A DNA stretch of 64,000 nt. Source: Mobula hypostoma. Its lineage: Eukaryota. Made by a program: the position numbers and the translations under genes. Positions within the stretch are counted from its first letter, which is position 1. Every line of letters starts with the position of its first letter. Of the stretch, positions 37,976 through 58,594 are shown piece by piece. Location of the stretch: assembly GCF_963921235.1 (NCBI RefSeq), contig NC_086097.1:127970001-128034000 (forward strand). The letters are read 5' to 3'. Under the pieces are notes generated by a model, which saw nothing but the letters and a program-made list of their open reading frames with translations, made no database searches and had not been told where the DNA came from.

Positions 37976-40274
37976 CAACATGTCGAGGAACCGACTAGAG
38001 AGCAGGCTATTCTGGACTGGGTTTTGAGCAATGAGGAAGGGTTAATTAGCGATCTTGTCGTGAGAGGCCCCTTGGGTAAGAGTGACCATAATATGGTGGA
38101 ATTCTTCATTAACATGGAGAGTGACGTAGTTAATTCAGAAACAAAGGTTCTGAACTTAAAGAGGGGTAACTTTGAAGGTATGAGACATGAATTAGCTAAG
38201 ATAGACTGGCAAATGACACTTCAAGGATTGACGGTGGATATGCAATGGCAGGCATTTAAAGGTTGCATGGATGAACTACAACAATTGTTCATCCCAGTTT
38301 GGCAAAAGAATAAATCAAGGAAGGTAGTGCACCCGTGGCTGACAAGAGAAATTAGGGATAGTATCAATTCCAAAGAAGTAGCATACAAATTAGCCAGAGA
38401 AAGTGGCTCACCTGAGGACTGGGAGAAATTCAGAGTTCAGCAGAGGAGGACAAAGGGCTTAATTAGGAAGGGGAAAAAAGATTATGAGAGAAAACTGGCA
38501 GAGAACATAAAAAACGGACTGTAAAAGCTTTTATAGATATGTAAAAAGGAAAAGACTGATAAAGACAAATGTAGGTCCCTTACAGACAGAAACAAGTGAA
38601 TTGATTATGGGGAGCAAGGACATGGCAGACCAATTGAATAATTACTTTGGTTCTGTCTTCACTAAGGAGGACATAAATAATCTTCCAGAAATAGTAAGGG
38701 ACAGAGGGTCCAGTGAGATGGAGAAACTGAGCGAAATACATGTTAGTAGGGAAGTGGTGTTAGGTAAATTGAAGGGATTGAAGGCAGATAAATCCCCAGG
38801 GCCAGATGGTCTGCATCCCAGAGTGCTTAAGGAAGTGGCCCAAGAAATAGTGGATGCATTAGTGATAATTTTTCAAAACTCGTTAGATTCTGGACTAGTT
38901 CCTGAGGATTGGAGGGTGGCTAATGTAACCCCACTTTTTAAAAAAGGAGGGAGAGAGAAACCGGGGAATTATAGGCCGGTTAGCCTAACGTCGGTGGTGG
39001 GGAAACTGCTGGAGTCAGTTATCAAGGATGTGATAACAGCACATTTGGAAAGCGGTGAAATGATCGGACAAAGTCAGCATGGATTTGTGAAAGGAAAATC
39101 ATGTCTGACGAATCTCATAGAATTTTTTGAGGATGTAACTAGTAGAGTGGATAGGGGAGAACCAGTGGATGTGGTATATTTGGATTTTCAAAAGGCTTTT
39201 GACAAGGTCCCACATAGGAGATTAGTGTGCAAACTTAAAGCACATGGTATTGTGGGTAAGGTATTGGTGTGGGTGGAGAATTGGTTAGCAGACAGGAAGC
39301 AAAGAGTGGGAATAAACGGGACCTTTTCAGAATGGCAGGCGGTGACTAGTGGGGTACCGCAAGGCTCAGTGCTGGGACCCCAGTTGTTTACAATATATAT
39401 TAATGACTTGGATGAGGGAATTAAATGCAGCATCTCCAAGTTTGCGGATGACACGAAGCTGGGTGGCAGTGTTAGCAGTGAGGAGGATGCTAAGAGGATG
39501 CAGGGTGACTTGGATAGGTTGGGTGAGTGGGCAAACTCATGGCAGATGCAATTTAATGTGGATAAATGTGAAGTTATCCACTTTGGTGGCAAAAATAGGA
39601 AAACAGATTATTATCTGAATGGTGGCCGATTAGGAAAAGGGGAGGTGCAACGAGACCTGGGTGTCATTATACACCAGTCATTGAAAGTGGGCATGCAGGT
39701 ACAGCAGGCGGTGAAAAAGGCGAACGGTATGCTGGCATTTATAGCGAGAGGATTCGAGTACAGGAGCAGGGAGGTACTACTGCAGTTGTACAAGGCCTTG
39801 GTGAGACCACACCTGGAGTATTGTGTGCAGTTTTGGTCCCCTAATCTGAGGAAAGACATCTTTGCCATAGAGGGAGTACAAAGAAGGTTCACCAGATTGA
39901 TTCCTGGGATGGCAGGTCTTTCATATGAAGAAAGACTGGATGAACTGGGCTTGTACTCGTTGGAATTTAGAAGATTGAGGGGGGATCTGATTGAAACGTA
40001 TAAGATCCTAAAGGGATTGGACAGGCTAGATGCGGGAAGATTGTTCCCGATGTTGGGGAGGTCTAGAACGAGGGGTCACAGTTTGAGGATAGAGGGGAAG
40101 CCTTTTAGGACCGAGGTTAGGAAAAACTTCTTCACACAGAGAGTGGTGAATCTGTGGAATTCTCTGCCACAGCAAACTGTTGAGGCCAGTTCATTAGCTA
40201 TGTTTAAAAGGAAGTTAGATATGGCCCTTGTGGCTACAGGGGTCAGGGGGTATGGAGGGAAGGCTGGGTTCTGA
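37976..40274 (+). pseudogene. CR1 ORF2 (partial endonuclease plus RT) with a single frameshift
   Basis: ORFs 37943-38524 and 38601-40274 join across an A-run at about 38509-38514. All RT motifs are intact (PQGSVLGP, FADD). Confidence 0.92.
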
Positions 40275-40381
40275 GTTGGATGATCAGCCATGATCATAAT
40301 AAATGGCGGTGCAGGCTCGAAGGGCCGAATGGCCTACTCCTGCACCTATTTTCTATGTTTCTATGTTTCTATGTTTCTATG
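37976..40381 (+). mobile_element. Young 5'-truncated CR1 LINE
   Basis: Endonuclease C-terminus plus RT, 3' UTR stem-loop (GGTGCAGG...CCTGCACC) and a clean (TTTCTATG)4 tail. Confidence 0.96.
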
Positions 40382-41979
40382 ACTATTGTAACATTGTCCT
40401 TTTGGCATTCATTTTCTATTTCCCGTTATAATTTGTTGGCCATATCCTAACTACTGTTTGTTGGTCTGTATACAACTCCCATCAGAGTCTTTTTACCTTT
40501 GCGGTTCCTGAGTTGTATCCACAATGATTCAACATCTTCTGACCCTATGTCACCTCTTTCTAATGATTTAATTTCATTTTTTACTAACAGAGCAAATCCA
40601 CTCCCTCAGCCTTCCTGCCTACCCTTTCAATACAATGTGTGTCCTTGGAGATTAAGCTCCAAGCTATAATCTTTCAGCCATAATTCAGTGATGCCTACAA
40701 CATCATACTGCCAATCCGCAACTGTGCTGCAAGTTCATTTACCATGTTTACTGCGCACATTCAGATACAATACCTTCAGTCCTGTATTCACTCTTTTCGA
40801 ATTTGTCTGCCTTTTACATCGAGACTCATCCTGTTTACTGCAATTTTACGCTTTCAACAGCCTCTCCTCACTACACATTGTCTCTGTTTGTAAACCAGCT
40901 ACCTTACCTTCAGCACTATTTATCCGTATTTTAAAATTGTATTTTAATACAGGCAGCTCTGAGAATCGCGTTCTCACCCACAGAACCTCCTGTCCGTTCC
41001 CCTGACTAATGAATCTCCTGTCACCATAGCATGCTTCTTCTGCCCCCTTCCCTTCTGAGACACAGAGGCAGAATCAGTGCCAGAGAGCCAACCACTGTGA
41101 CTTTCCTCTCTTAGGTCATTACCCCCCCCCCACCTCGATTAAGAGGGATGGCCACAGGGTTACTCTGCACAGGCTCCTTAACCCCTTTCCCCTTCCTGAC
41201 TGTCACCCAGTTTCCTGTGTCCTGCATCTTGGATGTAACTAATTCTCTATACGTCATATCTCTCACCCCTTCAGCCTCTCAAATGATCCGAGTTCATCCA
41301 GTTCCAGCTCCAACTCCTTAACATGGATTGTTAGAAGCTGCAGCTGGATACGCTTCTCATAGTTGTAGTTGTCAGGGAAACTGGAGGTCTCCTTGACTTC
41401 CCACATCCTGCAAGAGGAGCATTTCACAATCCTGCCGGTCATACCCACTGTCCTAGCTGAGCAGATATAAAGAGAGAAGGAAAGAACTTGAACTTCTCTT
41501 TCCTTTGCTTTCTCTGAGTGAAGTCTCTCTTCACTGAAGCCTCGAAGAGCTGAAGCCTTAGGATCACCACTCTGACTTTGTCCACTCTGGAGATGGGCAC
41601 TGCAATGATGGCCACTGTACTTGTCCCTGCCTTCCTTTAATTTGCTCTTACTAATCAATCCCAAGTGCCGACTGATTGCTGGTCAAAGCTCTATTGTGCT
41701 GCTGCGACCCGATCCTGCCTTCAATCCTCGGACAGTGGACCTGATTGAAGTCCCTTCCTCTCCAAACTTTTGATGTCCGGATTGGCTGCTGGTCAAAGCT
41801 TTTGAGGATTATTTATGAATATGAGAAATGGTGTTCAAATTTTTTAAAAAAGCAGATGTGCTAATGCCCAAACATAAACAAGTGAGGGGCAATGCATAAT
41901 GACATCTTCAACATTTGGATTGGACCTCAGGCTCTTATCTAACCGATCATCTCATACTTCTATCATTCTATTTTATTTT

Positions 41980-42230
41980 GAGATACACTGTGGAATAGGC
42001 CCTTCTGTTCTAGTGAGCTCTATCGACCATCAACCCAGCTATTTAACCCTAGCCAATTTACAATGACCAATTAACCTACTAACCGGTACAGATTGGAATG
42101 TGGGAGGAAACTAGAGCATATGGGGGAAACCAACGCACTCATAGGAAGGATGTACAAACTTCTTTCAGATAGCATCGGAATTGAACTTCGTTCTTTGACA
42201 CCTCCAGCTAACCATTACACTACCATGATG
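41980..42230 (-). mobile_element. HE1/V-SINE-like tRNA SINE, degenerate
   Basis: GTGGGAGGAAACTAGAGCA (reverse-complement V domain) and a decayed tRNA head at the right end. Confidence 0.55.
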
Positions 42231-42361
42231 CTCCATGAGCATTGATGATTGATGAACACTAAACCCGGAAGGTCTTGCTGGAATTTCATCGGGTAGCTTC
42301 CGGGCTTGAGGATAGATCAACCAGAAAGTTGGTGAATTTATCCAACATTCTGATAACCACT

Positions 42362-42575
42362 GGAGACACAAGAAACTGCATATGCTGGAATCTGGATGTT
42401 GAAGGAACTCAGCAGATCAGGCCACATCTGTAGAGGAAAATGGACAGTCAATGTTTCAGGTCAAGCCCCTTCTTGAGGGTTGAATCTCAACCCAAAATGT
42501 CGATTGTCCATTCCCTTCCAGTGATGCTGCCTGACCTGATAAATTTCACCAGTAGAAAATTTTCTAGTGTGTTGA
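42362..42575. repeat. Old degenerate palindromic PLE pseudo-LTR derivative
   Basis: AATGGACAGTCAATGTTTC is inverted against AAAATGTCGATTGTCCATT, with a PLE-type head. Confidence 0.65.
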
Positions 42576-42633
42576 TTCTGAGAGAATTAACAGTTGAACA
42601 TCTCCACAGACTGCAGAGTTTGGAACAAGGGGC

Positions 42634-43362
42634 TGATGTGATTGATCGAAGTCACTGAAGAGACACTGAAGCTGGTGATATAGAAGTCTTTATTCATCAC
42701 AACAAACAGGCATTTTCATAGAGACACTCTCAGTAGAGGCTCACAAAACCAAAACTACATCGCATTTTTATACCATTACGATCAAAGGTAATGGTAGGTG
42801 ATTCAATACAAATTCAATAGTTACAATGACATTGTTTATTTAAATACTTGGGATTGTCAAATGGTGCCATTGAGATATGCATTTGCAATGGAAGCACACT
42901 GCAATTGACAAGACACCTCTGAAGTTTCAAATGCCTTTGCTGAGAGAAAGTTTAATTAACACAAATATTCTAAAAACTTCTGAAGACAGAGAACCAGACA
43001 CCAGAGTGTACAATAGATTAGTACTGACTGCAACTATACCTGTGACTATGTTTGATATGTTAAATGACAACATCAGCCTGGGCTGCCAGCTTGAACTCAG
43101 TCACAATGGCGTAAATAACTTTGATATATTGCCTGGTTTAATGCAAGCCAATGAACACAACCCCATTGTCTTAAGATTTGGCTGATACATATGCACCTCT
43201 TAGTATGTAGGTCAGTTTAACTTCAATTTACAGCTTGCAATTTACAATAAGAATGGAAGGCTAATGGCAAGCTTCCTGAATGTATCTACATTTACGATAC
43301 AGACTGAAGTCTTGTTCTTCTCTTGAATTAATATCTTCTATATTCACGTAACTCTAGAATAT
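42634..43362 (-). repeat. ERV 3' LTR (its 5' edge and polypurine tract lost)
   Basis: About 85% identical by eye over the first ~125 nt to the LTR starting at 54397. The minus strand has AATAAA near 42690-42695. Confidence 0.85.
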
Positions 43363-43375
43363 GAGGATCTGATTA

Positions 43376-43455
43376 AGCACCACCTGCGATCTTATCCAGC
43401 TGGGAACAAACCCTGCCTTTTCAGGCAGCTCCTTTACCATTATTTGGTCTCCCAT
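43376..43455 (-). pseudogene. ERV integrase C-terminal (GPY/F-like) remnant
   Basis: Manual translation MGDQIMVKELPEKAGFVPSWIRSQVVL resembles GDxVxVK...PRWxGPxxVL. Confidence 0.6.
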
Positions 43456-43473
43456 TTATGGGGGGATTATGCT

Positions 43474-45998
43474 AAGAACATAAGATATAGGAGCAGAAAT
43501 AGGCCACTCAGCCCATCGAGTCTGCTCTGCCATTCAATCATGGGCTGATCCAATTCTTCAGTCATCTCCATTCCTCTGCCTTCTCCCCATACCCTTTGAT
43601 GCCCTGGCTAATTAATAACCTATCTATCTCTACCTTAAATACACCCTATGACTTGGCTTCCACAGCCGCTCATGGCAACAAATTCCTCAGATTTACCACC
43701 CTCTGACTAAAATAATTTCTCTGCATCTCAGTTCTAAATGGACGTCCTTAAATCCTGAAGTCGTGCCCTCTTGTCCTAGACTCCCCTACCATGGGAAATA
43801 ACTTTGCCATATCTAATCTGTTCAGGCCTTTTAACATTTGGAATGTTTCTATGGGATCTCCCCTCATTCTCCTGAACTCCAGGGAATACAGCCCAAGAGC
43901 TGCCAGACGTTCCTCATACGGTAACCCATTCATTCCTGGAATCATTCTCCGGAATCATTCTCCTGAATCCTCTCTGAATCCTCTCCAATATCAGTATATC
44001 CTTTCTAAAATAAGGAGCCCAAAACTGCACACAATACTCCAAGTGCCTCAACATCACATCCCTGCTCTTATATTCTATACCTCTAGAAATGAATGCCAAC
44101 ATTGCATTCGCCTTCTTCACCACCGACTCAACCTGGAGGTTAACCCTTAGGCTATCCTGATCAAGGGCTTCCAAGTCCTTTTGAATCTCTGCATTTTCAC
44201 TTCTCTCCCCATCTAAATAATAGTCTGCTTGTTATGGTTAGGCCACACTTAGATCCCCTCCAGTTTGCCTACCAGCCCTGACTAGGAGTTGAGGATGCCA
44301 TTGTCTACCTGCTGAACCGTGTCTACGCCCACCTGGACAAGCCAGCGAGCACTGTGAGGGTCATGTTTTTTGACTTCTCCAGTGCATTCAACACCATCTG
44401 CCCTGCTCTGCTGGGGGAGAAGCTGACAGCAATGCACGTGGATGCTTTCCTGGTGTTATGGATTCTTGATTACCTGACTGGCAGACCACAGTATGTGTGC
44501 TTGCAACACTGTGTGTCTGACAGAGTGATCAGCAGCACTGAGGCTCCACAGGGGACTGTCTTGTCTCCCTTTCTCTTCACCACTTACACCTCTGCACAGA
44601 GTCTTGTCATCTTCAGAAGTTTTCTGATGACTCTACCATAGTTGGATGCATCAGCAAGGGAGATGAGGCTGAGTACAGGGCTATGGTAGGAAACTTTGTC
44701 ACATGGTGTGAGCAGAATTATCTGCAGCTTAATGTGAAAAAGACTAAGGAGCTGGTGGTAGACCGGAGGAGGGCTAAGGCACCGGTGACCCCTGTTTTCA
44801 TCCAGGGGGTCAGTGTGGACATGGTGGAGGATTACAAATACCTGGGAATACAAATTGACAATAAACTGGACTGGTCAAAGAACACTGAGGCTGTCTACAA
44901 GAAGGGTCAGAGCAGAGCTGTCTCTATTTCCTGAGGAGACTGAGGTCCTTTAACATCTGTCGGACAATGCTGAGGATGTTCTACGAGTCTGTGGTGGCCA
45001 GTGCGATCATGTTTGCTGTTGTGTGCTGGGGCAGCAGGCTGAGGGTAGCAGACACCAACAGAATCAACAAACTCATTCGTAAGGCTGATGTTGTGGGGAT
45101 GGAACTGGACTCTCTGACGGTGGTGTCTGAAAAGAGGATGCTGGCCAAGTTGCATGCCATCTTGGTCAATGTCTCCCATCCACTACATAATGTACTGGGT
45201 GGGCACAGGAGTACATTCAGCCAGAGACTCATTCCACCGAGATGCAGCACAGAGCGTCATAGGAAGTCATTCCTGCCTGTGACCATCAAACTTTACAACT
45301 CCTCCCTTGGAGGGTCAGACATCCTGAGCCAATAGACTGGTCCTGGACTTATTTCCTGGCATAATTTACATATTACTATTTAATTATTTATGGTTTTATT
45401 ACTAATTAATTATTTATATAATTTCCAGCTGTAATGAAAACCAATTTCCCTCGGGATCAATAAAGTATGACTACGTCTATGACTATGACTATTTCTAACA
45501 CCAAAGTGCATGACCATACACTTTCTAACATTGTATTTCATTTGCCACTTCTTTGCCCATTCCCCTAAACTATCTGCAGGCTCTGTTTCCTCAACACTAC
45601 CCGCTCCTCCACCTATCTTTGCATCATCGGCAAATTTAGCCACAAATCCATTAATCCCATAGTGCAAATCATTGACATACATCATGAAAAGCAATGGTCC
45701 CAACAGTGACCCCTGTGGAACTCCACTGGTAACCAGCAGCCAGCCAGAATAGGATCCCTTTATTCCCACTCTTGGTTTTCTGCTGACCAGCCAATGCTCC
45801 ACCCACGCTAGTAACTCTCCTGTAATTCTACGGGCTCTTATCTTGCTAAGCAGCCTCACGTGCGGCACCTTGTCAAAGGCCTTCTGAAAATCCAAGTACA
45901 CCACATCTACTGCATCTCCTTTGTCTACCCTGCTTGTAATTTCCTCAAAAAATTGCAGTAGCTTAGTCAGGCAGGACTTTCTTTTCAGGAAACCATGC
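43474..45998 (-). mobile_element. 5'-truncated CR1 inserted in the ERV integrase, itself split by a Rex-like LINE
   Basis: RT fragments at 43748-44174 and 45490-45998. ATGCT occurs at both junctions. Confidence 0.88.
44233..45491 (+). mobile_element. 5'-truncated Rex1/Babar LINE
   Basis: [35 protein letters not shown] and a (TATGAC)n tail. Confidence 0.9.
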
Positions 45999-46063
45999 TC
46001 TCCCCATGGTTCTCGCCATTCAGGAATGTATTGCTGTAGTTTTGCTTGGTCCTTCAAAACTTA

Positions 46064-46289
46064 GTGTTGGGCACATGGCCAAGTGATTAAGGCATTTGTC
46101 TAGTGATCTCAAGGTCGCTAGTTCGAACCTCAGCTGTGTCAGCGTGTTTGTGCCCTTGAGCAAGGCACTTAATCACATTGCTCTAGTCTGTGCGAGGAGT
46201 GGCGCCCCACACAGACTTCCAATCTGCGCCTTGTAAGACATGAAAATACCCGACGCAGGCTTCTCATGGTCTGAGTCAACATTCCCTCC
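46064..46289 (+). mobile_element. tRNA-derived SINE with a 13-bp TSD
   Basis: A box TGGCCAAGTG, B box GTTCGAACC, CORE-like CCTTGAGCAAGGCACTTAA. TSD CCTTCAAAACTTA / CCTTCAACACTTA. Confidence 0.8.
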
Positions 46290-46302
46290 CCTTCAACACT
46301 TA

Positions 46303-46790
46303 AAGTTGGTTACAGAGGTCCTTTACATACTGGCTCATTTTATCCTTATAGGTTTCAGGTTCACTGCAACCTATGAATTGCTCGGTCCTTCAGTAATTCA
46401 GTAATTCATAGCTAAAAATCAATATGCAGTTTGGGATTACTCACAATCTGGCAGTACATCAACCTATTTTTTTTCTGCCTCTGTTATACCTTGACCTAAA
46501 GCCGTTTTGACTGTTCAGTTCATTCGTTCTACCATTCCTGAGCTCTGAGGGTGGCAGGATACGCAGAATCATTGTCAAATCCCCAGCAACTTGCACATTT
46601 CCTTCAGCAGTTTCCCTGTGAAATGTGCTTCCCAATCCAAGTGCACCTGAGCTGGGGTTCCCCACCTGGGAAGGATTTCATGAGCTAAAAATCTGTGCTG
46701 CTGTGCTGGTTTTCTTTGGGAAAGCCTCTACCCACCGGGTGAAGCGATCTATGATCCAGTGATCAGACAGTAGCTTTTCCCCTGATTTTT
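46303..46790 (-). pseudogene. ERV integrase catalytic core remnant
   Basis: Manual translation gives IDRFTRWVEAFP (about 46717-46752), EILPRWGTP (about 46653-46679), HFTG and HPQSSGMVERMN (about 46518-46553), with stops and frameshifts. Confidence 0.88.
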
Positions 46791-46965
46791 GACAGGGGCT
46801 GATCTTAAATTCCTGATGCTGTAGTACTTTCAAAACACTCACTATTGCCCCACAGTGTCCTACTTCATCCTCAAAAGTGACTAAAAAAACATCTGCATAC
46901 TGTAAAATTGTACTATGGTATCATGGTTCAAGTCAAGCTTGCTCAAGGTCTGTGCCATGACTTTA
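46791..46965 (-). pseudogene. ERV reverse transcriptase fragment (YxDD region)
   Basis: VMAQTLSKLDL...LQYADVFLVTFEDEVGH...VLKVLQHQEFKISP, a decayed LQYVDD-type motif. Confidence 0.65.
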
Positions 46966-48760
46966 TCTCATAGCTGTGGTATATTCACTCTGTGTATTCC
47001 ATGGCAGGTTCTTTGGCCTTCTGAACAATTGACATTATCACTTGCCAGTCACTCTCTCCTCCTCCAAGTCACAGCTTCACTTCTTCCTTAAAATTCCAAT
47101 ATCTTTCTTCATTGCTGGCATTCCCATGTTCCAACCTGCACCCTTGGGGTCATACTGTCCCATATATTTCTTAGGCATTTAGATTTAGCCAATATGTTTA
47201 TGCCTTTGGGATGCATCTGGTGGCATCGATCATTTCTTCAAACTTTCGGCAAAATTCTGCATTGCTGCAGGCAACTCTAAGTGGGAGCAGTTCGGATAGA
47301 ATGCTTTGATTTTCCTTGAGGGTGGATGGCCAGTGAATGGTGGTGATGACTGTGAGAATCTGGCTGGGAGCACTGGAGTTCTGAGCCTGTCATTGCCTGG
47401 TCTCGACTGCTGCTATTCTGACAGGCAGTACTGGGTATAATCTCTCCTGTTTGTGGGCACTTTCCCACCTGCAACTCCCTGCTCCAGTGCTTCCCAATTC
47501 ACCACATCACCCACCTCTGTCACAGCCACGGATTTGGCAGCGCAGCAGATATGGCAATTGCGCTCGTGGATATGCACATGTTAGCTAATTATTATTTCAT
47601 TGTGATGGTATTTAACTCCATTCTTTTCATCGTAGTGCTTATGGAGACTTGAGCAAAGCACAGCAAAGTTTCGCTGCCTGCTTGCATTCAACCTAGCCTG
47701 AGAAATTGAACTGTCAAGTCAACTGACTCTGAAGACTAGCGGTATTTGTTTTATATTTAGTTATTCCTTTCAGCCGCATTGTTGGCTTTGTTGCCCATTT
47801 AAGAGTTTTAGTTAATGGCCCTGTTTGGCTAACATTTATTGTTTTCTTTTCCCTCTAGCCCTGTTCGCATTAAAATCTATGAACTATCCACTCACTTCAG
47901 TACCTTTCGCTCTGCACTTGGGCCATATCTAAATGTCATGACATCCTCAGCAATTATTCCCATGGCTACTTCCCAGTGAGTACCCACCTGCTGGACCTTG
48001 TCCTATTTACCTCTCAGTCTGCCCAGATCCCTGACTAATCCATTCTCTTATTGTTCTAATTGTTCTGCCTGTTTGTTTTCACACCACATCTCTCTCTCTC
48101 TCTGTAACTGTTCTAACTGTTCCTTCAATCTGTCCAGCTCTACTTGCACCCTGTCTTGCTATTCCCTGTATTCATCCCCTTCCTTCTGTAGCTCTACTAT
48201 TTGTACACTATGTAATTCCAGGCACTTTGTTCTCTCTTGCAAATGTACATGATGTAGAATGACTGCTGCTTTATCTTCCTTCCTCTTTGACTGGCTTTTC
48301 CACCACTATCAATGTTCCTCCAGGCTCCAGCTCTTAACCCACCCAGCCTTGTCCATTCCCTGTTCAACCTTCTCAAATTTATGGAGTTATATTCTGTGAG
48401 TTCTCCCTTCTTCATAATTGAGCTCGTGACATTGCTGTGTCCCTTTTACATGGGAATTTAATATTTCTGCACTCTCACCTGTCTTAGGTGTTGATTTTCA
48501 AGTTTTCCCCACATGCAAGCGCCCCAAAAGTGTATACATGCACCCTCCGACATCCCAAATGGTGCCTCCACTTCACCCAATTGTTCTCTGTAACCACACT
48601 GCACATATTCTGTTGCCCATTGAATGAGTGTACATGCACCCTCTGACATCCTGGATGGCCAGTAACCTCCTTTCACAAATAGTGGCTCTGTTTTTGGCAA
48701 ACTACCCTGCGCTATCTGTAGCTCGTTCCATACACATAACATGGAAACATACCCACAACA
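46966..48760 (-). pseudogene. ERV gag-like remnant, interrupted by a solo LTR
   Basis: IVQKAKEPAMEYTE*IY (about 46980-47030) resembles the capsid major homology region (MHR). A purine-rich coiled-coil-like stretch lies at about 48000-48420, positioned between the PBS and pol. Confidence 0.55.
47518..47943 (+). mobile_element. Solo LTR of another family
   Basis: TGTCA...TGACA termini, flanks ACCTC / TCCTC, and ATTAAA near 47869. The gag frame reads through once it is removed. Confidence 0.75.
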
Positions 48761-49394
48761 GAATTGGGTTTAATATCACCTGCATATGTCGTGAAGGTTG
48801 TTAACTTAGTAGCAGCAGTGCAATGCAAGACATGATAAATATAGAAACAAATAAGTAGATCAACTACAGTAAGTATAGAAAAGTATATTAAATAGTTAAA
48901 TTAAAAATAGTGCAAAAACAAAAATAATAGAAGAAGTGAGTTAGTGTTCATTGGTTCAATTTCCATTTAGGAATCGGATGACGGGGGAAAGAAGCGGTTT
49001 CTAAATCGCTGAGTGTGTGCCTTCAGGCTTCTGTACCTCCTACTTGATGGTAACAATGAGAAGAGGTCATGCCCTGGGTGATGGGGGGTGTTCCTTAATA
49101 CTGGACACCACCTTTTGGAGGCACCAATCCTTAAAAATGTCTTGAATACAATGGAGGCTGGTACCCATGACAGAGCTGACTAATGTTACAAGTTTCTGCA
49201 ACTTATTTTGATTCTGTGCAGTAGCCCCCTCCCCCATAACAGATGGTGATGCAGCCAGTCAGAATGCTCTCTACGCTACATTTGTAGAAGTTTACGTAAA
49301 CATGAGGAATTCTGCAGATGCTGGAAATTCAAGCAACACACATCAAAGTTGCTGGTGAACGCAGCAGTCCAGGCAGCATCTCTAGGAAAAGGTA

Positions 49395-49432
49395 CAGTCG
49401 ACGTTTCGGGCCAAGACCCTTCGTCAGGACTA
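49395..49432 (-). ncRNA. Minimal type I hammerhead ribozyme motif, intact
   Basis: Minus strand reads tagtc-CTGACGA-a-gggt-cttg-gccc-GAAA-c-GTC-gactg. Stem I is uaguc/gacug, stem II is 4 bp, and stem III is the palindrome ACGU. Confidence 0.75.
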
Positions 49433-49722
49433 ACTGAAGGAAGAGTTAGTAAGAGATTTGAAAGTGGGAGGGGGAGGGGGAGATCCAAAATGACAGGAGA
49501 AGACAGGAGGGGGAGGGATGGAGCCAAGAGCTGGACAGGTGATTGGTAAAAGGGATATGAGAGGATCATGGGACAGGAGGAACAGGGAGAAGGAAAAGGG
49601 TGAGGGTGGGAAAAGAAACCCCAGAGGATGGGCAAAGGGTATAGTCAGAGGGACAGAGGGAGAAAAAGGAGAGAGATAGAAAGAACCTGTTTTCTGCAGG
49701 GATCGCTCCCTACGCGACTCCC

Positions 49723-50184
49723 TTGTCCATTCGTCCCCCCCCATCCCTCCTCACTGATATCCCTCCTGGCACTTATCCTTGTAAGCGGAACAAGTGCTAC
49801 ACATGCCCTTACACTTCCTCCCTTACCACCATTCAGGGCCCCAGACAGTCCTTCCAGGTGAGGCGACACTTCACCAGTGAGTCGGCTGGGGTGATATACT
49901 GCGTCCGGTGCTCCCGATGTGGCCTTCTATATATTGGCGAGACCCGACGCAGGCTGGGAGAACGTTTTGCTGAACACCTACGCACTGTCCACCAGAGAAA
50001 GCAGGATCTCCCAGTGGCCACACATTTTAATTCCACATCCCATTCCCATTCTGATATGTCTATCCACAGCCTCCTCTACTGTAAAGATAAAGCCACACTC
50101 AGGTTGGAGGAACAACACCTTATATTCCGTCTGGGTAGCCTCCAACCTGATGGCATGAACATTGACTTCTCTAACTTCCGCTAA
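49723..50184 (+). pseudogene. PLE GIY-YIG endonuclease domain (C-terminal part of the PLE ORF)
   Basis: CKRNKCYTC...GVIYCVRCSRCGLLYIGETRRRLGERFAEH...VATHF...LEEQHLIFRLGSLQPDGMN, open to the natural stop. The N-terminal RT is absent. Confidence 0.9.
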
Positions 50185-50494
50185 TGCCCCTCCTCCCCCT
50201 TGTACCCCATCCGTTATTTATTTACATACACACATTCTTTCTCTCTCTCTCTCTCTCTCTCTCTCCTTTTTCTCCCTCTGTCCCTCTGACTATACCCCTT
50301 GCCCATCCTCTGGGTTTCCCCCCTCTCCCTTTTCCTTCTTCCTGTTCCTCCTGTCCCATGATCCTCTCATATCCCTTTTGCCTATCACCTGTCCAGCTCT
50401 TGGCTCCATCCCTCCCCCTCCTGTCTTCTCCTATCATTTTGGATCTCCCCCTCCCCCTCCCACTTTCAAATCCCTTACTAGCTCTTCCTTCAGT

Positions 50495-50532
50495 TAGTCC
50501 TGACGAAGGGTCTCGGCCCGAAATGTCGACTG
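50495..50532 (+). ncRNA. Minimal type I hammerhead ribozyme motif
   Basis: tagtc-CTGACGA-a-gggtctcggccc-GAAA-t-GTC-gactg, with a C>T change in stem III. Confidence 0.68.
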
Positions 50533-50647
50533 TACCTCTTCCTAGAGATGCTGCCTGGCCTGCTGCGTTCACCAGCAACTTTGATGTGTGTAGAAGTTTT
50601 CGAGTGTTTTCACTGACAAACCAAATCTCCTCAGACTCCTAATGATG

Positions 50648-50790
50648 TGTCCCACTTTCAAATCTCTTACTATGTCTTCTTTCAGTTAGTCCTGACGAAG
50701 GGTCTCGGCCTGAAACGTCGACTGTGCTTATTCCTATGGATGCTGTCTGGCCTGCTGCATTCCGCCAGCATTTTGTGTGTGTTGCATGAA
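50648..50790 (+). mobile_element. Second PLE pseudo-LTR fragment (different subfamily)
   Basis: Similar to 50459-50588 but with a distinct downstream sequence (GTGCTTATTCCTATGGATGC...). Confidence 0.8.
50687..50724 (+). ncRNA. Minimal type I hammerhead ribozyme motif
   Basis: tagtc-CTGACGA-a-gggtctcggcct-GAAA-c-GTC-gactg. Confidence 0.7.
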
Positions 50791-51131
50791 ATGTAGTCGC
50801 TGTCTTGCCTTCTTTATTCAACATTTTGTGTCCAGGTTAAGTAAGGCCAGTCCTCAGAGATGTTGACACCCAGGAACTTGAAATTGCTCTACTCTCTCCA
50901 CTCTGATCCTTCTGTGAGGATTATGTTCCTTCATCTTACCCTTCATGAACTCCACAATCGGCTCTTTTGTCTGACTGACGTTGAGTGCATGGTTGTTGCT
51001 GCGACAGTACTTAATTAGCGGGTATGTCTTGCTCCTGTGCACCCTCTCATTTCCATCTGAGATTTTACCAACAATGGTTGTATTATCAGTAAATTTATAG
51101 ATGGCATTTGAGCTATACCCAGCCACACAGT

Positions 51132-51280
51132 CCATAAGACCATAAGATATGGGAGCAGAAGTTGGCTATTCGGCTTATTGAGTCTGCTCCGCCATTCAAT
51201 CATGGGCTGATCCAATTCTTCCAGTCATCCCCACTCCCCTGCCTTCTCCCTATAGCCTTTGATGCTCTAGCTAATCAAGT
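51132..51280 (-). mobile_element. CR1 3'-end fragment
   Basis: (CCATAAGA)2 tail and CR1 3' UTR. Confidence 0.8.
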
Positions 51281-51967
51281 ATAGAGGGTGTAGAGCAGTG
51301 GGATAAGCGCGTCAATGTCGATCATTAGCAAGGAGAAGATACTATTACCGATCCGCACAGATTGTGGTCTTCCGGTTAGGAAGTCGAGGATCCAATTGCA
51401 GAGGGAGGTATGAAGCCCAGGTTCTCTGTTGCTTACTAATCAGGACTGTGGGAATGATGAGCTATAGACAATGAATAGCATCCTGACATCGGTGTTTGTA
51501 TTGACCAGCTGATCTAAGTCTGTGTGAAGAGCCACTGAGATTGCACCTGCCATTGATCTATTGTAGCAACACATTGCAGTGGGTCCAGGTCCTTGCTGAG
51601 GCAAGAGTTGACTCTAGTCATAGCCAACCTCTCAAAGCGTTTCATCACTGTAGATGTGAGCAATGACTAGAGGAAAGTTATTAAGGCAACTCACACTACT
51701 CGTCTTGGGCACTGGTATAATTGCTGTCCTTTTGAAGGAGATGGGAACTTCCAACTGTAGCAGTGAGAGACTGAAAATGTCCTTGAATACTCCCACCAGT
51801 TGGTTGGCACAAGTTTTCAGAGCTTTACCAAGTACTTCATCAGGGCCTCTGCCTTGCGAAGGTTCATCTTCTTTAAAAGCAGCCTAACATCGGCCTCCGA
51901 GACAGAGATCACAAGGTCACTGGGAGCAGCAGTATTTCTTTACTGTTGAAGTAGCCCTCTGCAAGTC

Positions 51968-52322
51968 CATAAGACCATAAGACAAAGGAGCAGAAGTCGG
52001 CCATTCGGCCCATCGAGTCTGCTCCGCCATTTTATCATGAGCTGATCCATTCTCCCATTTAGTCCCACTCCCCTGCCTTCTCACCATAACCTTTGATGCC
52101 CTGGCTACTCAGATACCTATCAATCTCTGCCTTAAATACACCCAATGACTTGGCCTCCACTGCTGTCTGTGGCAACAAATTCCATAGATTCACCACCCTC
52201 TGACTAAAAAAATTTCTTTGCATTTCTGTTCTGAATGGGCGCCCTTCAACCCTTAAGTCATGCCCTCTCGTACTAGACTCCCCCATCATGGGAAACAACT
52301 TTGCCACATCCTCTCTGTCCAA
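51968..52322 (-). mobile_element. CR1 3'-end fragment
   Basis: (CCATAAGA)2 tail and the motif RNFFSQRVVNLWNLLP. Confidence 0.88.
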
Positions 52323-52774
52323 GTCATACCTGGTTTTCTTGTACAGACAGACCTGGGTCACCGGACATAAATGCCACATATCTAACCCTCAGCTGATGAC
52401 GAACGCCCTGGTTCATCCATGGCTTTTGGTTTGGGAATGTACAGCAAGTATTCGTAGGCACACACTCACCCAGACAGGTTTTAATGAAGCTGGTAAACAA
52501 CTGCAGCATACTGATCCAGATTCGAAGATGAATCTCTGAATACAGTCTAATCCATTGAGTCAAAGCAGTCCTGTAGGTGCTCCTGTGTTTCCCTTGACTA
52601 TACCTTCTTGGTCTTCACTACTGGCGCTGCAGTCTTCAATCTCTGCCTATTATCACAGAGTAGAAGTACAGCCAGGTGATCAGACTTCCTGAAGTGAGGA
52701 CATGGAATTTCACGATAAATACTCTTGATGGTGGTCCAGTGTGTTGTTTCCTCTGGTACTACAAGTGTTCACAG

Positions 52775-54006
52775 ACTTCAGTTCAGCATTCAACACAATC
52801 ATTCCTCAGCGCCTGATTGGAAAGCTGAAACTGCTGGCCCTGAACACCATCTCTGCAACTGGATCCTAGACTTCCTGACTGGGAGACCTCAGTCAGTCTG
52901 GATCGGGAGCAGCATCTCCAACACCATCACACTGTGCATGGGGGCCACCCAGGGCTGTGTGCTCAGTCCACCGCTAATCACTCTGCTGACCCACGACTGT
53001 GCAGCAATACACAGGTTGAACCACATCATCAAGTTCGCCAATGACACGACCGTGGTGAGTCTCATCAGCAAGAACGACAAGTCAGCATACAGGGAGGAGG
53101 TGCAGCGGCTAATGGACTGGTGCAGAGCCAACAACCTGTCTCCGAATGTGAACAAAACAGAAGACATGGTTGATGACTTCAAGAGAGCACGGAGCAACCA
53201 CTCTCCGCTGAACATTGACGGCTCCTCCGTTGAGATCGTTAAGAGTATCAAATTTCTTGGTGTTTACCTGGTGGAGAATCTCACCTGGTCCCTCAACACC
53301 AGCTCCATAGCAAAGAAAGATCAGCAGCATCTCTACTTTCTGTGAAGGCTAAGAAAAGTCCATCTCCCACCCCCCATCCTCACCACATTCTACAGAGGTT
53401 GTACTGAGAGCATCCTGAGCAGCTGCATCACTGCCTGGTTCGGAAATTGCCCCGTCTCAGATCGCAAGATCCTGTAGCGGATAGTGAGGTCAGCTGAGAA
53501 GATCATCGGGGTCTCTCTTCCCACCATTACAGACATTTACACCACACGGTGCACCCGTAAAGCCAACAGCATTGTGAAGGACCCCACGCACCCCTCATAC
53601 AAACTCATCTCCCTCCTGCCATCTGGCAAAAGGCACCCAAGCATTCGGGCTGTCACGATCAGACTATGTAACAGTTTCTTCCCCCAAGCCATCAGACTCT
53701 TCAATACCCAGAGCCTGGACTGACATCTACCTCATTTATTATTATATTGTAATTTGCCCTCTACTGTACCTATCATCTTGTTTATTATTAATTGTACTGC
53801 CCTGAACCATTTTGTGCACTTTATGTAGTCCCGTGTAGGTCTGTAGTCTAGTGTAGTTTTTGTGTTGTCTTATGTAGTCTAGTGTAGCCTTGTGTTATCT
53901 CATGTAGCACCATGGTCCTGGAGGAACGTTGTTTCATTTTTACTGTGTACAATACCAGTAGTTTATGGTCGAAATGACAATAAAAAGTGACTTGACTTGA
54001 CTTGAC
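52775..54006 (+). mobile_element. 5'-truncated Rex1/Babar-like LINE
   Basis: [32 protein letters not shown] and a (TGACT)n tail. Confidence 0.9.
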
Positions 54007-54376
54007 CTGATTTGTTGATCATAATCATTTAGTGACTTTTTCAGGTTGGCCTGGTTATAAATCCCCCAAAATTATGGTGAAGGCATCAGGGTGTGCTGTT
54101 TTGTGCATATTGATCACATTGCTCAGATCATCTAGAGCCTGTTTCACATTGGCCTAAGCTGGAATGTACACCACTACCAAAATGATCACAGAAATATCCC
54201 GTGGCCGGTAAAATCGCACTTTAATGTCTACCAGTTTAACTCTCCGTCATCTGTTTTGGTACTTCTTGATCCTATGGCTGACGACCTAAACATATCTAAC
54301 TGTGGGTGGTATTTAAAAAAAAAACTCACTCCTTTAGGCTGCAGAAGTCAATGACCACACAATGAGTCACAAACGT

Positions 54377-54394
54377 ATTCTGGATGAGCCCCCA
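54377..54394 (-). promoter_or_regulatory. tRNA-Pro primer-binding site of the ERV
   Basis: Minus strand TGGGGGCTCATCCAGAAT matches the Pro PBS TGGGGGCTCGTCCGGGAT at 15/18 and lies 2 nt after the LTR end ...AACA. Confidence 0.85.
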
Positions 54395-54396
54395 GA

Positions 54397-55861
54397 TGTT
54401 AGGACTGTGATCGAAGTCACCGGACAGACACTGAAGCTGGTGGTATAGAAGACTTTATTCATCACAACAACCAGATATTCTCATGGAGACACTCTTGGTA
54501 GAGGCTCACAAACCCAAAGGTACTTCACATTTTTATACCCTTCAGATCAAAGGTAACAGTAGGTGATTCAGTACAATTTCAACAGCTACAATGACATTGT
54601 TTACTTTAATACTTTGGGTTGACAAATGGTTCCTTTGAAGTACATATTTACAATGGAATCACATTGTCATGAATATTCAATTGCCTTTGCTGGAAGGAAG
54701 ACTAATTTACACAAATATTCTAAAAACTTCTGAAGACAGAGAACCAGGCATCAGAGTACACAATAGGTCAGTATCAACTGCAACTGTACCTGTGACCATG
54801 TTTGATTTGTTAAATGAGAACATGAGCCTGGTCTGCCAAATTGGTTTAATGGAAGCCAATTAACACAACATCATTGTCTTAATGTTTGGTTGTTGCATAT
54901 GCAATCTCTTAGGCTACGTCCACACTACGCCGGATAATTTTGAAAACAAAGCATTTTCTCTTCATTTTGACCTTCCGTCCACACTGAAACGGCGTTTTCA
55001 GCCGCCAAAAATGGAGATTTTCAGAAACTGTCTCCAGGGTGAATGAATCTGAAAACGCCTAATATCTGTTGCAGTGTATATGGGGTAACCGGAGCTTTTT
55101 AAAACCGCTGTCATGACGTGCCACAGCAGATGGCAGCAGCACGGCATTTCATTGTTTTATTATTATTATTATTACTTTATTGTCACCAAACAATTGATAC
55201 TAGTGTGTACAATCATCACGGCGATATTTGATTCTGCGCTTCGCAGAACCTAACAGTTTCAGAACAGACGTCACCGAGACTGAAGCCAGAAGAGTTAGAA
55301 ATGTACTCACCAAATACTTTGACCCATAGCTTACTGAATAAATAAGTATACTCACTTTGCCCTGTTTTCTGTCCTTGCTTGTATGAAGGTAAGGACAGAA
55401 AACCCCTCCGCCACCTCCAGTTTAAATTCCATGCAGAATATTTTGGAGGATCAAGAACCAAGAACCAAGAACCAAGGTGGTTTACCTATTTATGCAAGTG
55501 CTTCTCTGACAATAGATGTGTAACAGCCTAATGTAACATTGTATGGAAATACAAGATAACACTGATGCAGACATGTTTTTATACATTTAACAAGGTACTT
55601 TATTAATGCAACAGAGTTAGTCAGTTTTTCAATGTTCGTCGTCAGCCGGGACATACTGTTCGTGAATTCCAGCATAGTGTGGACGTAGCCTTAGTCTGTG
55701 GGTCAGTTTAACTTCAATTTACTGCATGCAATTTACAACAAGAACTGAATGCTATCTGCAAGCTTCTTGAACCTATTTACATTTACAGTAAGAACTGAAT
55801 ATGCCTTTTGCTTGAATTAATACCTGCTATAATTTAATCACTCCAGAAATACTCTCTAACA
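54397..55861 (-). repeat. ERV 5' LTR (about 680 bp once the Harbinger insertion is removed)
   Basis: TGTTAG...CTAACA termini; homologous to 42634-43362. Confidence 0.85.
54912..55690. mobile_element. Non-autonomous PIF/Harbinger DNA transposon
   Basis: Perfect 16-bp TIR GGCTACGTCCACACTA and TTA TSD. The empty site is visible in the other LTR at about 43200. Confidence 0.9.
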
Positions 55862-56899
55862 GGGGCTATAGAGTCAAGATAAGGGGTTAGCTATTTAAAA
55901 CTAAGAGATGGAGAAATGACTTTGCTCTGAGGATTGTAAATCCTTGGAATTCCGTCTCATCGAGCTGCAGATCCTCAGTTGTTGGGCAATATTGAAGGCT
56001 GACCTTAATCAGCTATAAGACATAAAGGGAATGGCAGGATGCAGTGATTGGGTTGGAAATTGATGTAATGTCAGGATATCTCTCTCTACAGGTGCTGCCT
56101 AACCTGCTGAGCATTTCCAACATTCTCTGTGTTTATTTGAGATACCTGGCCTCTACAGTTTTCAGTTTTGCTTTTGAATGTTATCTGTGACTTCGATTTG
56201 AACCTGTTTGGAGGAAAAGATGGAGAGGTAAAGGCATTTGTATTATTCTGGGGTTAGGCTTGAAGGTAAGTTGCCTGGACAGTGGATTCAAGTACTTGAA
56301 TGAAAAAAAGGTTAAAAATGGACTGAAAGTTTCTGCAAAGCCAAGAGGTTGATCTGGGCTCTTCTGAGGATAAATCCTATGAAGTATTGTGAATGATAGC
56401 TTTGAAAGGAAGGATAACATTCTCTAATCCAGGCTAATATTGATGTCAGCAAACATGGTACTAATAAAGGGATTGGCAGCTGGAGAATGTGGTTGTAATT
56501 GAGGAGCATCAGTGAGCTTAGTTTGGAAGTGATGTGAGCCCCTGAACATTTAAAAACTATTAAATAATTTTAAATTGCTAAAATAAAGTAAATTAACAAT
56601 TTAAATAATCACAAATCACTTCGCATTTCACAAATATTTTCCCTTTCTGACTTGCTTTCCTGCAACCTTCATAGGGGTCATTGTGAGGGGATAAAGCCAA
56701 ATCTTTATTCCCTCCCCCACCCCCGGGGTTATATTGGACACAAAATATACATACTCAATAACGCTTCTCAAAGTACCTGCCCATCCCTGGCCACCACCAA
56801 GACTGCTGGAGAGTTGTGATCATATTTTGCCTTTCCTGAAGCATCCCTTGTGATATACCTTTAGCAGTATCTGCCTAGTACATGCTGGGGCTACAGCCG

Positions 56900-57340
56900 A
56901 TAGGTGAAACCAGGTGAGTGGGAAGGGAGAAATCCATGTTCGCACCATCAGGTTGGAGGCTGTCCAGATGGAATATGAGGTGTTGTTACTCCACCATGAG
57001 AGTGGCCTTCTGGTAAAACTATCTATTACCTTCCCTCATCTTCTATTCCCCTCTGGCTTTTTACCTCTCCTCTTCGCCTGCCTATCACCTCCCTCTGGTG
57101 CCCCTCCTTCTTCCGTTTCTCCCACGGTCCACTCTCCTCTCCTATCAGATTCCTTCTTCTCCAGCCCTTTATCTTTCCCTCCTACATGACTCCTCTTCTA
57201 TCATCTTCTCCCCAGCTTTTGATTCTGGTGTCTTCTCTCTTCCAGTTCTGAAGAAGGGTCTCAACCCAAAACGTAGACTATTCATTCATTTCCGTAAATG
57301 CTGCCCAGTTCCTCCAGCATTTTGTGTGTGTTGCTCTGGA
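56900..57340 (+). mobile_element. Degenerate PLE remnant with a decayed hammerhead
   Basis: Short inverted 5' part and pyrimidine-rich UTR. CTGAAGA-agggtctcaaccc-AAAA-cgtagac lies at about 57248-57278. Confidence 0.65.
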
Positions 57341-58594
57341 TTTTATGATGAAAGAACAGACTCTTTAGTGTCAATGGTGAGGAATCTCAATAAAGTCCTA
57401 CTCCACCACCAGATTTCCCAGAGAAAATAATGGGAGACCTCAGCCTAGTAATGGTGGATTTTAGCTGTGCCTTCAGGGATGTGCAGAATTGTAACAATGA
57501 CCCAAAAAACTCTAAGTCATGATGTTCAGTGCAGATTAATTTCACACTGTACTTGACAGGATAACATTTGATTAGGATTATAGAATTGAAACACCATATA
57601 TCCCATCAAGTCTGTGCTCACTCTTTGGGTGAGTCTATTGATCTTTTGGTGATGAGGGGGAGGGCAGTTTTGCCAGGACCTGCCCCCCCCCGCTTTTTTT
57701 TTGTTGCCTTCATCAGCTTGCTTCATCTGTATCGGTGAAGGATATGAAGTGAGTAATCCAATTCCATTTGAAACAGGATTAAGTCGCACTAGAGAAAAAT
57801 AATGGAATGCTGATGGTGTTGAAGTAAGTGGAAAGAGGTTGGTCTGGATCATAAATAATGGTATAAGCCAATTGAGTTACCTGGTCTGTTTCAACATTAT
57901 CCATTTTAATTAACAGCATTTTTTTCGTAAATCATTAATAACAAGAAAAATGAAGCAAGACAGAGTTTATGCCGCAGATCAACCATTTGGAGTAGGTTAC
58001 GGAAGTTAGTGGGCTACAGATGCTCCTATGTCAATCAGCTAATTTCATTCTGTTCATGTGACAGTTCTTGCTCATAGTAATTTCTAAATTTTGAATCCAA
58101 ATTTCAGCTTGGAATGAGAATCAAATTGTCTGGCCTTGAACAAGAGGACAAATAGCACTTTATACGGTGTTTCTGTTGACAGTCTATGAACAACGCTACA
58201 GTTTGGCTCCCCTTGGCCAATGGTATGCTGGTCAAAAATACTTAAAAAACAAGTTCATTACCATAACAGGTTATTTACATACAAGGAATATAAAATAAGA
58301 AATGCCTTTATGATGTTTCTGAAATAATCCGAATTATTCACAAATGTGAACTTCTCATCTTAAACCTATGGTCTCCGCTTCTTGATCTACAGCCTGGGAA
58401 AAAGATAGTGTGTGTCCACCCTGTCTAGGCCTCTCATGACTTTATACACCTCTTTAAGATCACCCCTCATTCTCTTATTCTCCAACAAATAAAGTACCAG
58501 CCTTCTCAATCCTGCCCCATAACTCATTTCCTCATGTGCTGATACCATTCTCGTAAATCTCCTTAGTGTTCTTTCCAGCTTAATGGCATTTTGT

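Follow-up and report, generated by a model that had tools for sequence, protein, structure and literature searches.

Endogenous retroviruses (ERVs) that belong to neither class I nor class II are not a monophyletic assemblage, and the relatives of SnRV and Ovex1 are unclassified (PMC4299795). In cartilaginous fish the reverse transcriptases (RTs) of ERVs mostly fall into clade III, according to a passage in PMC11089739, and published screens have already assigned thousands of RT loci from chondrichthyans to clade III or clade Huo. The SnRV-like ERV of the elephant shark carries an env gene (PMC4422223). For ERV3 and ERV4 a target site duplication (TSD) of 5 bp is the norm (PMC4299795 Table 1; PMC8278194), and ERV3 is defined by the absence of zinc fingers and of GPY/F, by a dUTPase in pol and by the RT motif YIDD (PMC4299795 Table 1; PMC8278194 Table 2). 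Our comparison with SnRV-like, clade Huo and clade III elements draws on PMC4422223, PMC6001957 and PMC11089739.

The window, i.e. the whole stretch of 64,000 nucleotides of Mobula hypostoma DNA analysed here, harbours one dead, heavily deleted copy of an abundant ERV family of a kind which is already known. The preliminary description had announced an ERV of 13.2 kb; a provirus is indeed present, but only about 3.7 kb of this length are proviral while the remainder consists of later insertions. The gene order on the minus strand reads 5' LTR, tRNA-Pro primer binding site (PBS), leader, gag, a piece of RT some 170 bp long, the core of the integrase and 3' LTR. By ascending coordinate, the features are:

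42629..42633, unstranded: left copy of the TSD, GGGGC, 5 bp
42634..43362, minus strand: 3' LTR ending in ...CA, without about its first 10 bp, AATAAA at about 42694
43375..43470, minus strand: C-terminal integrase remnant with a GPY/F-like region, abutting the LTR
43473..46289, unstranded: nested later insertions, namely pieces of non-LTR RT elements (LINEs) in both orientations, tentatively labelled CR1-like and Rex1/RTE-like, and a short high-copy repeat
46290..46799, minus strand: integrase core remnant with stops and frameshifts
46796..46966, minus strand: RT remnant around a degenerate YVDD motif
46978..47517, minus strand: remnant of the gag capsid region
47518..47943, unstranded: solo LTR of another high-copy family within gag, TG...CA, flanked by GAGGA/GAGGT
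47944..48757, minus strand: N-terminal gag remnant with a coiled-coil-like stretch, homologous to Heterodontus P0092
48760..54217, unstranded: later elements nested in the stretch from leader to gag, among them LINE pieces
49645-50184, within the preceding insertions: GIY-YIG (Penelope-type) piece
54218..54376, minus strand: 5' leader, common to other copies
54377..54394, minus strand: tRNA-Pro PBS, 15/18, 2 nt inside the LTR
54397..55861, minus strand: 5' LTR, TGTTAG...CTAACA, interrupted by a MITE
54912..55690, unstranded: the MITE, 779 bp, its terminal inverted repeats 15 bp long, TTA duplicated, presumably of PIF/Harbinger type
55862..55866, unstranded: right copy of the TSD, GGGGC, 5 bp

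The RT remnant is flanked by two deletions, one of about 1.4 kb (end of gag, protease (PR), start of RT) and a second one of about 1.6 kb (end of RT, tether, RNase H, integrase zinc finger). Compared to other copies, the 3' (left) LTR has lost roughly its first 10 bp, and some 1 kb upstream of it, the polypurine tract (PPT) included, is gone, which is why the C-terminal integrase remnant lies directly against the LTR. A replicated non-autonomous subfamily sharing these deletions was considered and found no support, as the junctions are spanned by none of 39 other matches; the breakpoints of the other deleted copies (11 loci examined) differ, which likewise argues against it. All five peptide motifs checked, as earlier read by manual translation, lie within 46535-46752 of the minus strand, spread over two frames. 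The Pfam signal of the window's own frames is weak (rve, E=0.054) and the classification therefore rests on other copies of the family and on the integrase (IN) tree. An Rfam scan of positions 40000-58000 yielded no match. The provirus is now devoid of coding function.

The two LTRs, initially described as same-orientation repeats of about 700 bp, do form such a pair (82% identity over 446 nt and 78% over 144 nt), although the right one spans 1465 bp instead of the approximately 685 bp of the LTR proper because the 779-bp MITE sits inside it. Their divergence amounts to p=0.163 (K2P=0.186; 656 aligned sites). In the LTR tree, which is star-like for the family, they are mutual nearest relatives among 33 copies (sister support 97/91), and they share a single TSD, the GGGGC which had been noticed outside them; two independent solo LTRs can thus be dismissed. 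The PBS, found as initially reported, matches in 15 of 18 positions the 3' end of a tRNA-Pro gene of the same genome plus CCA. Across the genome, 1372 sites match the PBS-type pattern, as against 0 for the reversed control. Exact 5-bp flank matches are present in 5 of 17 other family LTRs (mismatched pairs: 0) and exact 4-bp matches in none of the 17; in the sister subfamily, 2 of 9 flanks match exactly over 5 bp and 2 of 9 over 4 bp. The suspicion that a 5-bp TSD marks an unusual lineage does not hold, since this length is normal in ERV3 and ERV4.

Fuller copies of the family encode gag with a coiled coil and two zinc knuckles, PR, RT, a tether plus RNase H, and IN. Their open reading frames (ORFs) match zf-CCHC, RVP, RVT_1, RNase_H, Integrase_H2C2, rve and, weakly, MLVIN_C, while Gag_p30, zf-H3C2 and dUTPase gave no match in those family ORFs that were scanned. 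RNase_H is present in the nearest Atlas clusters, in that of rank 2 together with RT_RNaseH; the tether and the second RNase H in pol are present in other copies and deleted in the window copy. At the gag-pro junction the codon is a stop in 2 of 12 copies and a sense codon in 10. The distance from IN to the PPT measures 855-1168 bp in 18 of 19 copies and contains no env. None of the Pfam envelope families was detected in this stretch (5 copies, 3 frames each), and a TLV_coat match lies within 10 kb of 0/117 family RT matches versus 12/33 distant RT matches. PF00523 (F-protein-like env) has no match in the genome in a search run without a positive control, 18 of 19 copies leaving no room for it. 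One of these searches having been a stricter first look and another lacking a positive control, they set floors, so that env may still exist in a rare master copy or in a very divergent form. Lacking a recognisable env, the family has likely spread by copying inside cells, and since env loss is known in ERVs (MuERV-L), the absence is no bar to Retroviridae-type membership. What is observed comprises the LTR pair, PBS, TSD and gene remnants of the locus and, for the family, the layout gag-PR-RT-tether-RNase H-IN and the env-free IN-PPT gap of about 0.9-1.2 kb.

Placement of the family was obtained from an RT tree of 73 rows by means of other copies (the window holds only about 170 bp of RT). 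The family and shark-cluster proteins form a clade (99/97) which is next joined by Pimephales and unnamed proteins (97/84). Support is 99/94 for the retroviruses without lokiretroviruses, 100/99 for class I, 100/100 for the foamy viruses, whose rows are of primate origin only, and 100/99 for the lokiretroviruses, whose rows were labelled through motifs that match Dataset S3 of PMC7947760; labelled ERV-L, ERV-S, ERV4, class II and fish foamy-like sequences are not among the rows of the trees. The family RT lies outside both the spuma and the lokiretrovirus clade. A 100/99 branch sets gypsy apart in the RT tree as well as in the IN tree, and in the latter the window's own IN core (78 columns) groups with the family (100/97), across this branch from gypsy. 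Ty3/gypsy membership, which the preliminary description had named as its possible refutation, is hence contradicted, and the old retroviral integration which it proposed is borne out, as is the chondrichthyan setting, the nearest named relatives being shark proteins. Compared with solved structures, the RT reaches 108 bits with the MLV type, 99 with foamy viruses, 52 with Ty3 and at most 38 with HIV, and it is solely from the low lentiviral scores that exclusion from class II is judged. A scan of viral contigs revealed no relative, and a metagenome scan gave one contig of 26% identity, which was not used. A search of published papers returned none on this family, and its exact RT motifs are absent from 300 of the 318 supplement pages of PMC7947760. 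These trees assign the family to the retroviruses and exclude it from gypsy, lokiretroviruses, foamy viruses and class I. It likely belongs, judging from its position, to the loose non-class-I/II ('class III', snakehead-retrovirus-like) grade, although a sister relationship to SnRV was not recovered in the trees.

That the family is a class I ERV, MLV-like or epsilon-like, whose 5-bp duplication is unusual, appears very improbable. The tRNA-Pro PBS, the MLV type as best solved-structure match (108 vs 99 bits) and the weak MLVIN_C match would suit such an element, yet the class I clade (100/99) excludes the family, its grouping with class I is rejected (p-AU 0.0043), and neither Gag_p30 nor zf-H3C2 is matched. 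Moreover, a sister subfamily with the same pol carries a tRNA-Leu PBS, for which reason the PBS is no pointer to MLV; the comparison with MLV drawn at the outset is not supported. Slightly less credible still is a lokiretrovirus, which would be the first for cartilaginous fish, or a Ty3/gypsy element. A coiled-coil gag and two RNase H domains are lokiretroviral traits too, and the five chondrichthyan genomes screened in PMC7947760 (Table S2) gave no lokiretrovirus match. The separate clade of these viruses and the motif RCPFGY of fish lokiretroviral RTs versus RLPQGF in the family speak against the former, the branch towards gypsy in both trees against the latter; PF00523 gave no match in the search without a positive control.

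More serious, if still rather unlikely, is a deep, unnamed lineage of retroviruses with members in sharks, rays and some bony fish, which would stand apart from every named group, class I and foamy viruses being as distant as SnRV and ERV-L. It would have lost env, become a mass retrotransposon independently of ERV-L and switched its primer tRNA (Pro vs Leu) together with the LTR while keeping pol. The compact clade with the Mustelus-cluster and Heterodontus proteins fits this proposal, as do the lack of any named virus closer than about 40% RT identity and the non-monophyly of the non-class-I/II ERVs. Counting against the SnRV-like placement, RT identity to SnRV is 38%, no higher than to class I (31-40%), and a 98/92 branch of the RT tree splits the family from SnRV. 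Against the separate lineage, the deep nodes are weak, a grouping with SnRV is not rejected (AU p=0.079), CmiERV lineage I shows by eye a similar coiled-coil gag and similar RT motifs, and the published clade III/Huo loci of chondrichthyans probably include the family. We give even less credit to spread by reinfection or by env borrowed in trans, with the sampled copies as env-deleted derivatives. The genome does contain 78 TLV_coat matches from other ERVs, the SnRV-like ERV of the elephant shark does possess env, and a short conserved peptide-like stretch occurs in the 3' region of both subfamilies; however, this region is equally short in the two subfamilies, as it is in 18 of 19 copies, and no family RT match is close to an env match. 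In our view the locus is probably one dead provirus, belonging to an abundant ERV family outside class I, foamy viruses and lokiretroviruses, likely of the 'class III'/SnRV-like grade, without recognisable env and likely multiplied by intracellular retrotransposition in the germ line.

According to this preferred reading, tRNA-Pro would have primed the reverse transcription of an LTR-driven transcript, whose integration, with a stagger of 5 bp, would have formed part of a burst of the whole family; afterwards the copy would have lost most of pol and the PPT, received about 9.5 kb of other elements and become fixed by drift. The same insertion is present in three other organisms (B, C and D), while in organism E (share 0.04) no reliable locus-specific piece was found; among the joints and loose ends listed in four runs no empty site was seen. 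Conversion of the LTR divergence at 2.2e-10 per year, the rate assumed in PMC4422223, leads to an implausible age of about 420 My and an arbitrary rate of 1e-9 to about 90 My, neither of which was adopted; the measured shark mutation rate is given per generation (PMC10587355). Taken alone, the locus amounts to ordinary genomic debris. The family, which is of moderate use, is a large and old group of ERVs without env from a vertebrate class that has received little study; its place, with class I, foamy viruses and SnRV around it, is in a part of the retrovirus tree that is unresolved, and orthologous insertions across species could calibrate the slow chondrichthyan clock. If it truly were a lineage of its own, it would represent an independent reversion from retrovirus to retrotransposon, parallel to ERV-L.

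With MLV and class I the family shares the tRNA-Pro PBS, YVDD, the WVEAFP and PQSSG motifs and a GPY/F-like tail, but its RT lies outside class I, its TSD has 5 instead of 4 bp, gag carries two zinc knuckles without a Gag_p30 match, and env is missing. Foamy viruses, in contrast to the family, have no gag zinc knuckles. ERV-L/ERV3 elements (MuERV-L, HERV-L, XtERV-S) show the same 5-bp TSD and TGT...ACA LTR ends (PMC8278194), their tRNA-Leu PBS resembles that of the sister subfamily, and MuERV-L has amplified without env as well; in the family, however, YVDD replaces YIDD, gag has two zinc knuckles, IN carries a GPY/F-like tail and dUTPase is without a match. ERV4 of crocodilians and turtles (PMC4299795) agrees in its 5-bp TSD, the lack of dUTPase and a non-class-I/II RT, while it lacks gag zinc fingers and GPY/F and retains env, the family being opposite on all three counts; zinc knuckles and the GPY/F-like tail are at odds with both the ERV3 and the ERV4 definition of PMC4299795. 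SnRV and CmiERV lineage I share with it the non-class-I/II RT motifs DGSxRLTIDY, YTWTRLPQGFH, LQYVDD and GLFNxCR, and both have env, which the family does not. CmiERV-I, from the same host class, likewise has TGTTAG...CTAACA LTR ends, whereas its PBS differs from the Pro or Leu type of the family; its likeness in gag and RT is one judged by eye, CmiERV-I not being part of the trees. The nearest relatives with a name are two proteins annotated as uncharacterized, XP_067870587.1 of Heterodontus francisci (P0092), with 49% RT identity and a homologous gag, and XP_078069418.1 of Mustelus asterias (P0283, cluster of P0088), with an RT identity of 62% (P0088).

The provirus in the window is old and degraded, and its family is a retroviral one that lacks env and likely falls in the non-class-I/II grade. 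Comparison of the window with itself yields a direct repeat (42643-43342 versus 54408-55831; 82% over 446 nt and 78% over 144 nt), which bears out the LTR pair of same orientation noted in the preliminary description. Along the minus strand, TGTTAG opens the right repeat and CTAACA closes it. Two nucleotides beyond the end of this LTR, the minus strand harbours the primer binding site (PBS) TGGGGGCTCATCCAGAAT (54377-54394), whose complementarity to tRNA-Pro in 15 of 18 positions, as claimed earlier, is confirmed with the 3' end plus CCA of a tRNA-Pro gene from the same genome. Likewise, the GGGGC reported as an exact duplication is found outside both outer LTR ends. The right LTR owes its excess length to an inserted 779-bp MITE with terminal inverted repeats and a TTA duplication. 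The K2P distance between both LTRs amounts to 0.186 (656 sites). Within a tree of 33 LTR rows they form a sister pair (97/91, from a bootstrap that had not fully settled) and a single GGGGC pair flanks their outer ends, which argues against two independent solo LTRs. The remaining 31 rows lie at distances of 0.18-0.25 in a star-like tree, suggesting a burst of the family around the time of the window insertion.

The proviral remains were delimited by comparing the window with other copies of the family.

Proviral remains between the LTRs of the window provirus
54218-54376, minus strand, leader
47944-48757 and 46978-47517, minus strand, gag remnants
46796-46966, minus strand, RT remnant
46290-46799, minus strand, integrase (IN) core remnant
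43375-43470, minus strand, IN tail remnant

All five integrase peptides read previously are present at 46535-46752, spread over two frames. The ERV described as 13.2 kb long proves to be a real provirus, but only about 3.7 kb, LTRs included, are proviral, the other 9.5 kb consisting of LINE pieces, a GIY-YIG element, a foreign-family solo LTR and the MITE. Compared with L089, another genomic copy, the provirus has lost about 1.4 kb between gag and its RT remnant and a further 1.6 kb or so from RT to IN; moreover, about 1 kb upstream of the 3' LTR is deleted, including the polypurine tract (PPT). None of 39 other matches spans the deletion junctions, so that these losses seem unique to the window copy. 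Without protease (PR), RNase H, the PPT and most of RT, this copy is inert. The nested solo LTR (426 bp) belongs to another, very abundant family and is 85-87% identical to many other copies. An integrase zinc-finger scrap of the provirus's own family is located at 56665-56897 (minus strand), roughly 800 bp beyond the 5' LTR. At 16150-17100 (minus strand), RT and RNase H sequences of gypsy type survive in decayed form.

Logan contigs crossing the locus-specific junctions are present in three further organisms, B (70 differences in about 3100 bases), C (4 in 242) and D (about 283 in 2900). Those of organism D include both edges of the nested solo LTR (47518-47943) and also join the left flank to the 3' LTR; hence, the insertion predates the split from D. 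In D (run X13) the locus has suffered further deletions (window 42420-42795 and 46795-47218), which take out the left target-site duplication (TSD) region and the RT remnant. For an age in years, the rates published in PMC4422223 and PMC10587355 yield implausible to unusable answers.

A first look at the 3.48-Gb host genome gave 3197 LTR, 492 IN and 6745 RT candidates, which are not copy numbers. Forty 10-kb stretches reveal the layout of the family: LTR, PBS, leader, gag, PR, RT (YVDD), tether, RNase H, IN, about 1 kb, PPT and LTR. Gag combines a coiled-coil-like N-terminal part with two CCHC knuckles, and its homologue, the shark protein P0092, matches retroviral Gag clusters of the Atlas with scores of 0.92-0.94. 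TSDs were sampled at those 17 of 31 LTR loci which have both ends and no PBS behind, at least three of them being 3' LTRs and not solos; an exact 5-bp duplication occurs in five of the 17, an exact 4-bp duplication in none. In L044, two PBS-bearing LTR-end segments (17-52 and 623-660) about 600 bp apart suggest a duplicated or chimeric 5' end.

A sister subfamily (L049, L050, L055, L057, L062, L083, L086, L087, L090, L100) has related pol and leader sequences but differs in its LTR (about 570 bp), in its PBS, which is of the tRNA-Leu(CAG) type, and in its Gag N-terminus, which is shorter and hydrophobic. Its LTR pairs are mostly younger (87-94% identical in nine of ten; 77% in L057), and of 11 loci nine passed, two with exact 5-bp and two with exact 4-bp duplications. 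Shorter copies of about 5-6.6 kb (L047, L049, L050, L055, L057, L062) retain gag, protease and integrase with RT apparently absent, and possibly represent a replicated non-autonomous form.

From the C-terminal IN motif to the PPT, 18 of the 19 copies in which both were found measure 855-1168 bp; the 19th contains a LINE in between. Within this stretch no envelope family match was obtained in five copies and, among the 150 RT matches listed, TLV_coat lies within 10 kb of none of the 117 family members (at least 41% identity) and of 12 of the 33 distant ones, both searches giving lower bounds. These 33 distant RT matches represent an ERV group more remote from the family (RT identity 31-37%), exemplified by C64:31415787-31420117 and C5:89997517-90001072. 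Both subfamilies share a short peptide-like stretch, C-x-E/D-x-W-L/F-x-x-V-D-D, between IN and PPT (L043:7900-8100, L052, L047, L089, L090), which is without Pfam match and possibly represents what is left of a decayed accessory gene or of env.

The observed parts and their order underlie a scheme drawn from standard retroviral replication. The 5' LTR would drive transcription and the zinc-knuckle Gag would package the transcript; tRNA-Pro would prime the minus strand and the PPT, with RNase H acting, the plus strand, followed by integration with a 5-bp stagger. Since the family is env-less, it most likely spread by germ-line retrotransposition.

Against solved structures, a family RT reaches 108 bits for MLV-type, 99 for foamy, 52 for Ty3 and at most 38 for HIV enzymes. 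Among its best relatives in the database are P0088, in whose cluster a Mustelus asterias protein is found, the unnamed P0087, P0092 (Heterodontus) and P0089 (Pimephales). The shark proteins among them point to a probable cartilaginous-fish host. The RT tree comprises 73 rows selected from the fetched proteins, near-duplicates and most gypsy rows being excluded; foamy rows were labelled by source name, class I and gypsy by Pfam content or position, lokiretroviruses and SnRV (P0202) by their agreement in motif or sequence with Dataset S3 of PMC7947760, and ERV-L, ERV4, class II and fish foamy-like references are absent from the RT and IN trees. The family joins the shark cluster (99/97), and its place is within the retroviruses exclusive of loki (99/94), separate from class I (100/99) and from the foamy viruses (100/100). 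A constraint uniting the family with class I is rejected (p=0.0043); one uniting it with SnRV is not (p=0.079), the latter grouping being absent from the unconstrained tree. As to a Ty3/gypsy affiliation, in the IN tree (65 rows) the core encoded in the window itself joins the family with support of 100/97 and the shark cluster with 97/90, and is set apart from gypsy.

The 5-bp TSD, previously taken as a possible sign of an unusual lineage, does not support this view: according to PMC4299795, TSDs measure 4 bp in ERV1 and 6 bp in ERV2, whereas ERV3 and ERV4 have 5 bp, and PMC8278194 likewise gives 5 bp for ERV-L-type elements. The window locus is ordinary and its TSD expected. The family may so far be unnamed, and its loci may already be contained in the supplements of published ERV screens; PMC11089739 counts 2843 RT loci of clade III across six genomes of chondrichthyans, and PMC7947760 lists five cartilaginous fish without loki marks. 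Clade Huo is defined around SnRV (PMC6001957) and an SnRV-like ERV of the elephant shark carries env (PMC4422223). With SnRV itself, the present family shares an RT identity of only 38%.
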